From assembly GCF_003008535.1 (NCBI RefSeq), contig NZ_CP027666.1, forward strand, positions 2,892,176 through 2,924,175: DNA of 32,000 bases. Reading direction: 5' to 3'. This document shows, in pieces, positions 25,678 to 28,646 of this stretch. Under the pieces are notes generated by a model. It was not told the DNA's origin. It saw only the letters and a list, made by a program, of their open reading frames with translations, and ran no database searches. Source of the DNA: Ottowia oryzae. GTDB taxonomy: Bacteria > Pseudomonadota > Gammaproteobacteria > Burkholderiales > Burkholderiaceae_C. The stretch's first letter is position 1. Every line of letters begins with the position of its first letter. A program made the position numbers and the translations under genes.

Positions 25678-25692
25678 TTTTACAAGCCAAAT

Positions 25693-25730
25693 CAGCCGCC
25701 AGCGCTTGATGGACGGGCGCGAGCAGCTAT
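25693..25730. repeat. REP-like element copy R4
   Basis: The sequence is cagccgccagcgc-ttgatggacgg-gcgcgagcagctat followed by tgaatcagga. It lies directly downstream of the RM gene, and the stop codon at 25735-25737 falls in the repeat flank. Confidence 0.75.
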
Positions 25731-25734
25731 TGAA

Positions 25735-28578
25735 TCAGGAGTTGTCAAGCGGCTTTGCGCGCCTGCGGCGCGTGGGTCTGGCCGGCACGTCCAGCGGCGC
25801 GGCCAGTTGCTGGTACAGGCCAAACAGAAAGGCCACGCGGCTGGCGTCCTCCTTGCCACCCTTGTAGCCGTAGGCGGCATCGACGGCGCGGTCGAGCGCG
25901 GCATGGGCGCGGGCGAGTTCGGCGGGCATGGTGTCGGGGTTGTAGAGCAGCGCCATGCTGGCATGCTGGCCGGCCTTGGCGCACAGGTCGAATTCGCGCT
26001 GGCGGGCGTCCAGCACGGCCTGGGCTGCGGTTTCGACGGCCTGGCGGTGCTTGTCTGCCAGCGGCTGCGGCCAGGGGTAGTTGTTGTAGACGATGGTGTT
26101 GGAGTAGCGGTAGTCGCTTTTCAGCCGCCCGGCCACGGTGCGCATCCAGGCGTTGTGCATGGTGCTGCACAGCATGCCGAAGTGGTACGGGGTGGCGTTG
26201 GGGAGCATGAACACCAGATTGCTGGCAATGACCTCGGCCGGCATGTAGCCGATCGGTACGATGCGGCGCCTCTCTGACGAAACGCTTGGAACCAGCAAAT
26301 ACGGCTTGTCCGTCTGACGTATTTCCCCGAACAGATGCGGGGTCTGGGCTAAAAGTTGAGTGGGCACCTTGCTGCTTTGCATACGCATGGCACGCACCGC
26401 AGCCAGCCGCCGCTTCAGCTCGGGTGATGCGGCCTTGTCCGCAGAAGTCGCCTCAACCAGCCACAGGCAAAAGCGCGACACGTTGTTGATGAATTCATCC
26501 GCCCCCAGAAACGGGGCGATGTAGCGCGCCGCCACCGGATCGGTGGCGCGAATGTGTTCGGCTTCTTCGGCGGACAGCAGCAGGTGCCCGCCATCCGTAG
26601 GCTTGCTGCCGTATGACATTTCAGGCACGCCGTCCTGCAGCGGCTTTCGCCGCTTGTCCAGCAGCACGGTGGGGGCATCGACCAGGTAGGGGTTGAGCCG
26701 GCTGACCACGCTTTCAACGCCCTCGCCGGCAATGTCGTCGCCGTAATCGAACACGCGCACGGGCTGCGCGGGCGGGCACAGGGCAAAACCGATGATGACG
26801 CAATGCACGGCGGCCACGCCGCGCCCTTCGTTGCTCCACTTGAAGGTGCGGTGCGCAAAGTGGATGTGCGCGCCCATCGGCAGCAGCAGCGACCACAGGG
26901 CGGCCACCTGCTCGCCCTGGCTGATGCTGTTGGTGGACACAAAGGCCGTGTGCACAAGCGGGTTGGCCTGCATGTAGTGCGCGGCCTTGAGGTACCAGGC
27001 CGCCACGTAGTCCAGCACGCCCACGCCCTTGGTGTTGCCGTATACCGCTTCCAGGTCTTCCTTCTGCGCCCTGGTCTGGTTGCTGTAGCCCACAAACGGC
27101 GGATTGCCCACGATGTAGCTGCAGTCGCCCGGCGCCAGCACGTCGGCCCAGTCCACGCGCAGGGCGTTGGCGTGGCGGATATGCGGGCTGTGCACCAGGG
27201 GCACGCTGGGGCGGGTGCTGCCGAACAGGCTGGCGGCCTCCAGGTTCATCTGGTGGTCGGTGATCCACAGGGCCACCTGGGCGATGTGGGCGGCGCTCTG
27301 GTCGATTTCGATGCCGTAGAACTGGTCGACGTTGACGCGGCTGAGGGTGCCGATGTCGAGCAGGCCGCGGCTTTGCCCGCCTTTGCTGAACAGGCGCTCG
27401 ATGAGGGCCATCTCCAGCCGCCGCAGCTCGCGGTAGGCGATGACGAGAAAGTTGCCGCAGCCGCAGGCGGGGTCTAGCACGCGGATGCGGGGCAGCTTGT
27501 CGTACAGCGCCTGCAGGCGCGCGCGGCTGCTGCCAGCGGCGTGCAGTTGGGCGCGCAGGCCGTCCATGAACAGGGGGTTGATGGCGCGCAGGATGTTGCG
27601 CTCGGACGTGTAGTGCGCGCCCAGCTCGCGGCGGCTGGCGGTGCGGCTCTGGTCGGGGGTCTGCTGTTCGAGCACGCCCTGGAACATGGCGCCGAAGATG
27701 GCGGGCGAGATGCCGGACCAGTCGAGCCGCACGCAGTCCAGCAGCAGCTGGCGCAGGGTGCTGTCGAAGGCGGGGATGCGGGTGCGCCCGGCAAAGAGCT
27801 GGCCGTTGACCCAGGCGAAGGCAGCCAGGGCTTCGTCGAGCAGGCGGCTGCGCTGGGCGGGGGCGGTGTCGAGCACCTCGAACAATTCGGCCAGGGTGGC
27901 GCCCAGGTCTTTGCCGTCGTCTCGGGTGGCTTCGATGAGGCGGCGGAACTGGCCGTCGTCGCCAAAGATGGCGGTGTCGTCGGCGAACAGGCAGAACAGC
28001 AGGCGGGTGAGGAAGGTTTCGAGGTCGCGCCCGGTGAAGTTGCTGCGCAGCAGGGCGTCGTGCAGCGCGGCCATTTGCTCGGCGGCGCGGCGGTCGGCCT
28101 CGGTTTCTTCGGTGATGACGGGCGGGGTGTCGTCGGTGAGAAAGCGGAACCACTCGGCGTGCCGGGGCAGCTCGGCCAGGGTGCAGGTGTGCTGCGCGTC
28201 CTGCGCCAGGTCGAACAGGGCGAAGCGGCCAAAGTCGTGCAGCAGCACGTAGCGCGGCTGCTGGTGCGGCGGGCAGGCCCAGCGGTAGGCTTCGGCCTGC
28301 TGGCGGGCTTTTTTGAGGTCTTTGCCCAGGCTTTTGCCTTCGACGATGACTTTGCCGGGGATGAAGCCATCCATGTAGCCGGTGCCGCCGTCGGCCAGGG
28401 TGACACGGTATTCGCGCTGGTACTGGTGCGCGGCAATGCCGAAGCAGGCCAGAAAGTCGGCGGTGAAGAGCTTTTCGTCGGCGCGTTCGCTGCTGGTGCC
28501 CTGCCATTGGTGGGCAAAGGCAGCGAGCCGTTTTCGCAGTTCGTTGGTGGTGAGGCGGGTGGCGGCTCTGGCGGGCAT
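25735..28578 (-). CDS. MmeI-family Type IIL restriction-modification enzyme (fused endonuclease, N6-adenine methyltransferase and TRD)
   Basis: 947 aa with these blocks:
- N-terminal D70-X9-E80-X-K82 (YMDGFIPGKVIVEGKS);
- LLFCLFADDTAIFG;
- LDWSGISPAIFGAMFQ;
- LGAHYTSE;
- MTase motif I, VLDPACGCGNFLV;
- motif IV, IVGNPPFVG;
- TRD blocks FAHRTFKWSNEGRGVAAVHCVIIGF, GADEFINNVSRFCLWL and STMHNAWMRTVAGRLKSDYRYS.

From memory, these blocks are collinear with MmeI along the whole length. Confidence 0.9.
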   Translation of the reverse strand: MPARAATRLTTNELRKRLAAFAHQWQGTSSERADEKLFTADFLACFGIAAHQYQREYRVTLADGGTGYMDGFIPGKVIVEGKSLGKDLKKARQQAEAYRWACPPHQQPRYVLLHDFGRFALFDLAQDAQHTCTLAELPRHAEWFRFLTDDTPPVITEETEADRRAAEQMAALHDALLRSNFTGRDLETFLTRLLFCLFADDTAIFGDDGQFRRLIEATRDDGKDLGATLAELFEVLDTAPAQRSRLLDEALAAFAWVNGQLFAGRTRIPAFDSTLRQLLLDCVRLDWSGISPAIFGAMFQGVLEQQTPDQSRTASRRELGAHYTSERNILRAINPLFMDGLRAQLHAAGSSRARLQALYDKLPRIRVLDPACGCGNFLVIAYRELRRLEMALIERLFSKGGQSRGLLDIGTLSRVNVDQFYGIEIDQSAAHIAQVALWITDHQMNLEAASLFGSTRPSVPLVHSPHIRHANALRVDWADVLAPGDCSYIVGNPPFVGYSNQTRAQKEDLEAVYGNTKGVGVLDYVAAWYLKAAHYMQANPLVHTAFVSTNSISQGEQVAALWSLLLPMGAHIHFAHRTFKWSNEGRGVAAVHCVIIGFALCPPAQPVRVFDYGDDIAGEGVESVVSRLNPYLVDAPTVLLDKRRKPLQDGVPEMSYGSKPTDGGHLLLSAEEAEHIRATDPVAARYIAPFLGADEFINNVSRFCLWLVEATSADKAASPELKRRLAAVRAMRMQSSKVPTQLLAQTPHLFGEIRQTDKPYLLVPSVSSERRRIVPIGYMPAEVIASNLVFMLPNATPYHFGMLCSTMHNAWMRTVAGRLKSDYRYSNTIVYNNYPWPQPLADKHRQAVETAAQAVLDARQREFDLCAKAGQHASMALLYNPDTMPAELARAHAALDRAVDAAYGYKGGKEDASRVAFLFGLYQQLAAPLDVPARPTRRRRAKPLDNS

Positions 28579-28595
28579 GGACTTGGAACGAAAAT

Positions 28596-28632
28596 GGCCG
28601 CCAGCGCTTTGCTGGCAAGCGTTGGAAGCTAT
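28596..28632. repeat. REP-like element copy R6
   Basis: The sequence is ggccgccagcgc-tttgctggcaa-gcgttggaagctat followed by ttattcagga. It has the same orientation and flanks as R4 and lies directly upstream of the RM gene. Confidence 0.7.
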
Positions 28633-28646
28633 TTATTCAGGATCAA

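Follow-up and report, generated by a model that had tools for sequence, protein, structure and literature searches.

The window analysed here is a stretch of 32,000 nucleotides from Ottowia oryzae (contig NZ_CP027666.1, positions 2,892,176 to 2,924,175 of the forward strand), and in it a restriction-modification (RM) gene of the MmeI family stands between pdxJ and acpS, two genes of a housekeeping operon. The locus raises the question whether this gene codes for a working restriction enzyme, and how such a gene came to be housed, and kept, at this place. The explanation that we propose as a whole, with a probability of roughly 0.8, is that the gene would encode a functional single-chain MmeI-family RM enzyme at an old pdxJ-acpS locus whose content is renewed by recombination. 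A first-pass annotation, made from the letters of the window, had already described an MmeI-type enzyme inserted in the operon rnc-era-recO-pdxJ-acpS; its picture of the enzyme and of the gene order is borne out below, and its reading of the insertion is refined.

The enzyme and its nuclease

Read along its minus strand, the window has the genes rnc (3' part)-era-recO-pdxJ-RM-acpS-nagZ in this order. The housekeeping genes were confirmed by Pfam and NCBIfam. The position given to the RM gene, inside rnc-era-recO-pdxJ-acpS and on the same strand, holds as well. The RM open reading frame (ORF), which belongs to the MmeI family (Type IIL/IIG) and has 947 amino acids (aa) and an ATG start, is at 25735-28578. 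Its upstream neighbour is pdxJ, which codes for pyridoxine 5'-phosphate synthase (28647-29414, minus strand; Pfam PdxJ 4.6e-77, NCBIfam NF003626), and its downstream neighbour is acpS, which codes for holo-ACP synthase (25273-25677, minus strand; TIGR00516 7.6e-28), and 25678-28646 is exactly the gap from the acpS start (25677) to the pdxJ stop (28647).

Five Pfam MmeI domains follow one another in order along the 947-aa ORF, with E-values from 1e-22 to 1e-89. They are the PD-ExK nuclease domain MmeI_N (aa 17-178, 28045-28530, 4.7e-33), the helical spacer MmeI_hel (aa 185-262, 27793-28026, 2.7e-22), the gamma-class N6-adenine methyltransferase MmeI_Mtase (aa 346-599, 26782-27543, 1.2e-89), the target recognition domain (TRD) MmeI_TRD (aa 635-838, 26065-26676, 1.2e-72) and the C-terminal domain MmeI_C (aa 841-928, 25795-26058, 1.1e-24), all on the minus strand. 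After MmeI_C comes a basic tail with the end ...DNS* (AAC TCC TGA), in codons like those that end pdxJ at many junctions where the RM gene is missing (empty sites). A phmmer search against the chain of the MmeI crystal structure (PDB 5HR4) gave a single domain hit, residues 9-937 of the query on 3-913 of MmeI (E=7e-253, 845 bits), and the PADLOC model REase_MTase_IIG scored 1058 bits over residues 9-927. The five domains and the end-to-end match to 5HR4 confirm that this ORF has all the MmeI modules ascribed to it. The MmeI-type TRD among them is confirmed by the MmeI_TRD hit and by the scaffold residues L819 and R824, which align with L805 and R810 of MmeI.

The family criterion of Morgan et al. 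(2009) is a PD-(D/E)xK motif that aligns with D70, E80 and K82 of MmeI, and mutating these three residues in MmeI abolishes cleavage (PMC2731913). The nuclease motif of the window protein, YMDGFIPGKVIVEGKS (aa 68-83, 28330-28377, minus strand), holds D70 (28369-28371), E80 (28339-28341) and K82 (28333-28335), and in the phmmer alignment to 5HR4 these residues fall on D70, E80 and K82 of MmeI. The D70-X9-E80-X-K82 arrangement that had been described as having the spacing and the numbering of MmeI does have both, and it is located at 28333-28371. The gamma-class methylase motifs are likewise where they had been placed, motif I (DPACGCGNF, aa 369-377) at 27448-27474 and motif IV (NPPF, aa 492-495) at 27094-27105, both on the minus strand. 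When 93 homologues were aligned, D70, E80, K82 and E31 (E25 of MmeI) were invariant in all 93, in agreement with the earlier view that the nuclease triad is intact, and the two methylase motifs were kept in 92-93 of them. In the nuclease domain, comparison with five related alleles gave a ratio of nonsynonymous to synonymous substitutions (dN/dS, Nei-Gojobori) of 0.08-0.22, and comparison with the most distant allele, that of locus L089, gave 0.45. The domain is under purifying selection, and the nuclease is thus maintained and not decaying. On all of the family criteria that a sequence can test, the 947-aa ORF is a full-length MmeI-family Type IIL/IIG enzyme.

No gene of an RM-type Pfam family (R, M or S gene) was found within 10 kb on either side of the RM gene at the syntenic locus of the O. 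oryzae chromosome OZ242858.1, which is ~96% identical to the window in nucleotides and whose precomputed Pfam calls were used for this check. Together with pdxJ and acpS adjoining the RM gene directly, this agrees with the absence of a companion M, S or R gene that had been noted from the window. An exact-sequence look-up of the window protein returned no record, and the 93% identical homologue P0001 of this O. oryzae chromosome was used for context. MmeI-family enzymes cleave ~20/18 nt from an asymmetric site, methylate one strand and need two sites (PMC2731913). By analogy with the family, the TRD and methyltransferase (MTase) domains of the window protein would bind an asymmetric 6-bp site, the enzyme would methylate just one strand, at the site's single adenine (position 5), as the sole protection of the host, and unmethylated DNA would be cut ~20/18 nt downstream by the N-terminal PD-ExK domain, with no need for a partner gene.

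It could be argued that the protein is an orphan or epigenetic methyltransferase whose nuclease is not used in defence, like DnmA/YeeA of Bacillus subtilis, and that its placement in the operon reflects a regulatory role. Methyltransferase-only members of the MmeI family do exist (PMC9973331, PMC2731913), the DnmA/YeeA-type homologues have MTase, TRD and C-terminal domains homologous to those of the window protein, and the RM gene sits in a constitutive housekeeping operon and not in a defence island. However, in the known methylase-only members the PD-ExK motif is missing and yeeB/yeeC-type genes lie alongside (PMC2731913), whereas the window protein has the motif, and helicase or T5orf172-type (yeeB/yeeC-like) neighbours were not found within 10 kb at the O. 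oryzae locus; a nuclease-less homologue of the DnmA/YeeA type was rejected on these two grounds. The intact and invariant D70, E80, K82 and E31 and the dN/dS of the nuclease domain against the five alleles also speak against an orphan methylase, and the rapid turnover of the TRD among near-identical strains, described below, fits diversification of a defence system and would be unexpected for a fixed regulatory methylome. We consider this alternative improbable and hold to a restriction enzyme that would be active in defence. A BREX PglX protein was also rejected, since it gave just 22-26 bits over ~85 residues against cut-offs of 500-900 and there are no BREX genes nearby at the O. oryzae locus.

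The protein is a member of a known enzyme family with no new mechanism. Among characterised enzymes MmeI stands closest to it, joined by NmeAIII where the specificity residues are concerned. With MmeI of Methylophilus methylotrophus, the Type IIL prototype, it is collinear over its whole length and has the same five domains, and it shares with MmeI the numbering of D70-X9-E80-X-K82, the NPPF motif, the Y/K pair for position 2 of the recognition site and the state of a solitary gene without a separate methylase. The host and the genomic address are different.

The pdxJ-acpS junction and its hairpin spacers

One genome per species was scanned for relatives of the window pdxJ, and 80 Comamonadaceae/Burkholderiales loci were kept and mapped with tblastn. 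At 66 of the 80 loci pdxJ and acpS were within ~180 bp of each other, at eight they were separated by a gap of 490-842 bp, at five acpS was not found on the stretch, and at just one, that of a Brachymonas metagenome-assembled genome (MAG; L003), was an MmeI-family gene present at the junction, with 64% identity. The empty junction is the norm and therefore the RM gene is an insertion, as had been claimed; had the gene been present in all relatives it would have been taken for ancestral, and it is not present in all of them.

Occupied junctions were nevertheless found in several organisms. The O. oryzae chromosome OZ242858.1 (4.01 Mb; L081) carries the gene for P0001 between spacers of 68 bp and 57 bp that are identical to those of the window, and two O. 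oryzae-like metagenome contigs (L171 and L172) have an occupied junction. The junction is also occupied in the Ottowia-like L089, where era, recO and acpS are 88%, 80% and 90% identical to those of the window and the RM gene just 65%, in L087, which is on a 560-kb contig (RM 71% identical), in L086 and L088 (69%), in L165 and L166 (81%) and in a second Brachymonas locus, L150. Of the first 33 protein clusters (65-93% identity), at least 18 have a protein tail of the form '..x-S-stop', which is specific to the junction. The Ottowia-like genomes L018 and L067 are empty at the junction and L036 has a different small gene there. This refines the earlier reading, because what we see is a long-lived presence/absence polymorphism across several genera and not a private insertion. 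The G+C content at third codon positions (GC3) is 0.88 in the RM gene and 0.85-0.91 in its neighbours, and this closeness, with a locus common to several genera, fits the earlier statement that the insertion is old or came from a GC-rich donor. In the survey of Morgan et al. no specific genes regularly bordered the nuclease-bearing MmeI homologues (PMC2731913), and thus a conserved pdxJ/acpS address across Comamonadaceae genera is a new contextual detail. A search of the literature library found no publication there linking pdxJ-acpS with restriction-modification and none on Ottowia oryzae. It is hardly credible that an error of assembly produced the arrangement, or that the gene is decaying on its way to a pseudogene. 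Apart from the exact-sequence look-up that returned no record, nothing speaks for either; against them, the 4.01-Mb O. oryzae chromosome and independent assemblies show the arrangement too, with 68-bp and 57-bp spacers identical to those of the window, and the ORF runs unbroken and is complete when compared with MmeI.

Other small genes were seen at the same junction in other genera, namely, an ORF of the 2'-5' RNA ligase superfamily (L036, 6765-7306), an alpha/beta hydrolase (L051, 6747-7577) and a GNAT acetyltransferase (L020, 6723-7277), the last of which was confirmed by Pfam. L024, L031, L039, L045 and L063 are likewise gapped, and the other gaps in Roseateles and Pelomonas are ~500-580 bp; the Pfam confirmation of GNAT is for L020. 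The pdxJ-acpS junction tolerates insertions in general.

Two forms of junction occur at the empty sites. In one, the stop codon of pdxJ touches or overlaps the ATG of acpS; in the other, pdxJ ends '...TCC TGA' and a spacer of 51-59 nt precedes the acpS ATG. The hairpin in this spacer has the form ATAGCTGC-YAGCGC-loop-GCGCTRG-AGGCC and is followed by a short T-run. It belongs to a dispersed family that resembles repetitive extragenic palindromes (REP-like), with 11 pattern matches in the window versus 1.7 expected, and in genomes of Acidovorax, Comamonas and Ottowia the same REP-like element forms the spacer between pdxJ and acpS. Covariation in the hairpin is limited to a conserved 6-bp stem with modest compensatory change, and no Rfam family matched in the window.

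In the window, and at all occupied loci other than those of Brachymonas, the hairpin and the acpS leader occur twice, in the same orientation, with one copy on each side of the RM gene. The upstream spacer, from the pdxJ stop to the RM ATG (28579-28646, minus strand), carries the REP-like hairpin ATAGCT..GCCAGC/GCTGGC..T-run and an acpS-type leader, and the downstream spacer, from the RM stop to the acpS ATG (25678-25734, minus strand), carries a second REP-like hairpin and leader and is orthologous to the single spacer of the empty sites. The upstream junction runs from the pdxJ stop through TTGA-TCCTGA, the hairpin and 17 nt to the RM ATG. The downstream junction runs from the RM end AAC TCC TGA through the hairpin and 16 nt to the acpS ATG, and it matches the empty junction of the Ottowia MAG L018 (GAT AAT TCC TGA, hairpin, 16 nt, ATG). 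The unit that is duplicated around the RM gene is 'TCCTGA + hairpin + leader up to ATG', and because of this duplication the RM start codon is at the place of the acpS start while acpS keeps its native leader. Copies of the gene on mobile elements (L083-L085) end otherwise (RKQ*, PAP*) and are without the spacer; therefore the spacer is native to the locus and is not carried by the gene. An integron-type cassette with an attC site was rejected, as the hairpin is REP-like and genome-wide, the mobile copies do not have it and there is no integrase in the O. oryzae locus. A simple target-site duplication was also rejected, since the REP-like family is dispersed, with at least eight copies in the window, and the mobile gene copies are without the hairpin.

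At the Brachymonas loci L003 and L150 there is one hairpin, upstream, the sequence is longer by ~130 bp and the RM stop and the acpS ATG overlap (ATGA), which points to a second, separate event or to a later rearrangement. We suggest that an MmeI-family gene would have entered the REP-containing junction long ago in the Comamonadaceae, by one old insertion, and that at least one further insertion event would have taken place in Brachymonas; since the Brachymonas junction differs, there would have been at least two such events. The gene would then have been retained as a presence/absence polymorphism.

As for acpS, the same hairpin precedes it at the empty sites, and read-through past the hairpin would therefore be its native mode of expression. 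At the occupied sites acpS is presumably expressed in the same way, by read-through from upstream past weak hairpins. The insertion would then lengthen the transcript and pose no new kind of problem for acpS.

The recognition domain and its predicted specificities

The window and the O. oryzae chromosome OZ242858.1 are ~92-100% identical in nucleotides over ~8 kb, besides the TRD and three indel patches. In the TRD segment (26212-26711, minus strand) the sliding identity falls to 87-88%, 69% and 52% and then returns to 96-100%. At the protein level the window protein and P0001 are 98-100% identical over most of aa 1-600 (90% in 301-350) and over 801-947, and in successive 50-residue windows of aa 601-800 they are 88, 84, 78 and 58% identical. 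The synonymous divergence (dS) from the O. oryzae allele is 0.55 in aa 620-800 versus 0.07-0.09 elsewhere in the gene, that is, 6-8 times as high, and GC3 is 0.78 in aa 601-800 versus ~0.90 in the rest of the gene. The sharp drop in identity, the raised dS and the lower GC3 mark the TRD segment as one imported by recombination and not as a product of fast local evolution, and the exchange between these near-identical strains is recent. The breakpoints differ among the O. oryzae-like alleles. Both L171 (P0007) and L172 (P0002) have flanks that are 92-100% identical to the window besides short indel windows; L171 is divergent from ~27135 to 25813, with 43-87% identity, and L172 at 27132-26983 and 26832-26383.

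The residues that contact the bases were mapped via the 5HR4 alignment, and the rules for reading them were those derived from the MmeI-DNA structure, covariation and mutagenesis (PMC4833311, PMC2731914). The base-contact equivalents in the window protein are Y656, K659, K737, G751, E752, S765, N787, L788, K820, D822 and R824 (26107-26613, minus strand). For position 1 of the site, A723, F737 and Y738 of MmeI correspond to K737, G751 and E752, and Lys or Arg at 723 with Glu at 738 goes with a C:G pair, which would give C. For position 2, Y642 and K645 of MmeI correspond to Y656 and K659, the same pair, which would also give C. For position 3, E751 and N773 correspond to S765 and N787, an S/N pair as in NmeAIII, again for C; for position 4, A774 and R810 correspond to L788 and R824, and a bulky residue with Arg allows G only; position 5 is the methylated adenine; and for position 6, E806 and R808 correspond to K820 and D822, a K-D pair that exclusively specifies G. 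The window allele is predicted to read 5'-CCCGAG-3', with the A at position 5 methylated and cleavage ~20/18 nt downstream. Unlike MmeI, which reads TCCRAC, it has K/G/E, S/N, L and K/D as contacts for positions 1, 3, 4 and 6, where MmeI has A/F/Y, E/N, A and E/R. NmeAIII of Neisseria meningitidis (GCCGAG 21/19) shares with it S/N, L with R, and K/D for bases 3, 4 and 6 but reads G at position 1, for which Lys and Glu stand in the window protein, a pattern that the authors tie to C; for this comparison the NmeAIII residues come from the paper and not from a direct alignment.

The other alleles differ at these residues. P0001, the 'DNA methyltransferase' of OZ242858.1, is like the window protein in its locus, its identical spacers and its 98-100% identity over most of the non-TRD sequence, but it is 58-88% identical in aa 601-800 and has K/Q, R/D and A where the window protein has Y/K, S/N and L. 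With K-G-E and K/D in common, the window allele (Y/K, K-G-E, S/N, L, K/D) is predicted to read CCCGAG and the P0001 allele (K/Q, K-G-E, R/D, A, K/D) CGGRAG. The P0002 allele (F/M, R-G-E, S/N, L, E/R) is predicted to read CACGAC, and P0007 and P0009 have other combinations of contact residues. One species-level lineage would hold at least 4-5 predicted specificities at this locus. Turnover would be strongest in the TRD, under selection for new specificities, and this would be why near-identical strains differ in specificity.

Other RM types are well known to exchange the TRD while the locus stays fixed (for example PMC3983042), and such exchange had been foreseen in the MmeI family (PMC2731914). 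The locus is like those of Type I hsdS and of Type IIG/III 'domain movement' in Helicobacter pylori (PMC3983042), in that the recognition module is exchanged between strains at a fixed address, and unlike them in that one MmeI-family polypeptide is the whole system and the locus is part of a housekeeping operon. No switching machinery of the inverted-repeat or invertase kind was seen at the RM locus of the window. The MmeI family is the one restriction-enzyme family in which specificity can be both read and rewritten from sequence, so natural alleles that differ in the TRD on a nearly identical scaffold are ready-made material for new specificities (the predicted CCCGAG, CGGRAG, CACGAC and others) and, at the same time, a natural experiment on the recognition code. 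The locus also shows a defence gene that is housed in an essential housekeeping operon, outside any defence island, and has been long kept there and diversified by recombination.

Recombination may also have moved the whole gene between backgrounds. L165 and L166 code for an identical 946-aa protein. In nucleotides the two loci are 97-100% identical over a stretch that begins ~170 bp before the end of pdxJ and takes in the RM gene and most of acpS, whereas the rest of pdxJ is 75-81%, era ~83% and recO ~71% identical. Barring a chimeric contig, this is a recent transfer of the RM block between the two backgrounds by recombination in the flanks. Homologues that are 74-78% identical to the window protein adjoin mobile genes, which are a Tn3-type transposase fragment in L083, HipA/resolvase/IS605 genes in L084 and L167 and integrase/Rep_1/KfrA genes in L168, and in a neighbour-joining (NJ) tree of aa 11-600 the mobile-element copies interleave with the junction alleles. 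The family is common on plasmids, with 274 PLSDB records and a best identity of 55%, and rare in phage records, with at most 41% identity over most of the query and one partial match of 47%. We propose that the content of the locus would be renewed by homologous recombination with other alleles, including these relatives on mobile elements.

A second alternative is that the junction is an active integration hotspot at which each lineage acquired its MmeI-family gene independently by insertion targeted to the REP or hairpin, for example by Campbell-type recombination of a circle carrying RM and REP with the resident REP, and that no old resident locus was renewed by replacement of alleles. In its favour, same-orientation REP-like copies flank the insert, junction alleles are polyphyletic relative to the mobile-element copies, the Brachymonas junction differs (a REP on the upstream side alone, and an RM stop that runs into the acpS ATG) and GNAT, alpha/beta hydrolase and 2'-5' RNA ligase-family genes occupy the same junction elsewhere. 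Against it, the mobile copies L083-L085 are without the REP spacer and without the '..TCC TGA' tail, and no cassette of RM and REP was seen off-site; all non-Brachymonas junction alleles share both junctions to the base, which is easier to obtain by one insertion followed by internal recombination; and the mosaic breakpoints are inside the gene and not at its edges. A hotspot of this kind is unlikely, though it is a stronger competitor than an orphan methylase, and we prefer one old insertion, a further event in Brachymonas and recombination within the gene. A bolder form of the preferred explanation, which we put forward tentatively and with more doubt than belief, is that the junction is a dedicated REP-bracketed docking site where the MmeI gene is tied to an essential operon while its recognition module is continually replaced from mobile relatives. 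If so, the gene would be constitutively expressed and hard to lose, and the locus would be a chromosomal defence locus that diversifies its specificity by recombination with a single polypeptide.

Several points weigh against the explanation proposed here. Cleavage, methylation and the CCCGAG site are all predicted by homology. The rules for positions 1 and 2 are 'not simple' according to their own authors (PMC4833311, PMC2731914), and therefore bases 1 and 2 are the weakest part of the CCCGAG prediction. CCCGAG occurs 17 times in the window when 24 +/- 4.4 are expected, a depletion that is not significant; a protected host site need not be depleted. With regard to expression, the upstream hairpin is terminator-like, with an 8-bp stem and a CCATTTTCGT tail, and the downstream hairpin does not match this description, while a scan of 24900-29600 for sigma-70-like promoters found none and is uninformative for a genome of 67% GC. 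With regard to movement, the NJ tree is without support values and is blurred by recombination, and L165 and L166 are metagenome contigs for which a chimeric join is possible, though a long identical stretch would have been needed for it.

Neighbouring genes and minor features

The remaining genes of the cluster are era (30372-31505), recO (29422-30192, with RecO_N/RecO_C) and nagZ (24039-25298, NF003740 1.5e-126), all on the minus strand. The three indel-rich patches in the comparison with OZ242858.1 are at 30212-30400 between era and recO, at 25262-25311 between acpS and nagZ and at 23986-24061 downstream of nagZ.

The window pdxJ is just 68-72% identical to every other Comamonadaceae pdxJ, and this holds even for Ottowia-like genomes in which era, recO and acpS share 76-90% identity with the window genes. 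In the lineage of the window pdxJ looks either replaced or unusually fast-evolving. Transfer of pdxJ together with the RM gene was rejected, because occupied loci have a pdxJ that is not closer to the window pdxJ than that of empty loci. In L165 an extra DUF4153 gene (2320-4035) lies between recO and pdxJ, so the gene cluster is evidently interrupted at more than one point. In L166 recO is 81% identical to that of the window and era only 70%, which hints at a mosaic make-up of the rnc-era-recO-pdxJ region itself in these organisms.

Copies of the REP-like element are at 10214-10256, 12166-12208, 20224-20266 and 25215-25257 on the plus strand, and at ~21240-21282, ~23320-23361 and ~31330-31373, besides the two spacers at 25678-25734 and 28579-28646 (pattern matches at 25730 and 28632), on the minus strand. 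Most of the copies on both strands are intergenic, and the one near 31373 lies within the long ORF called as era.

More distant MmeI homologues (55-58% identity) in L098, L099, L101, L104, L105, L137 and L111 share an upstream motif, CGCATAATCGAGCCATCCACGACAGGCA, and a downstream gene that begins ATGAGCGGTTCCGGC and whose start overlaps the RM stop, which suggests that these homologues have a different, conserved two-gene context.

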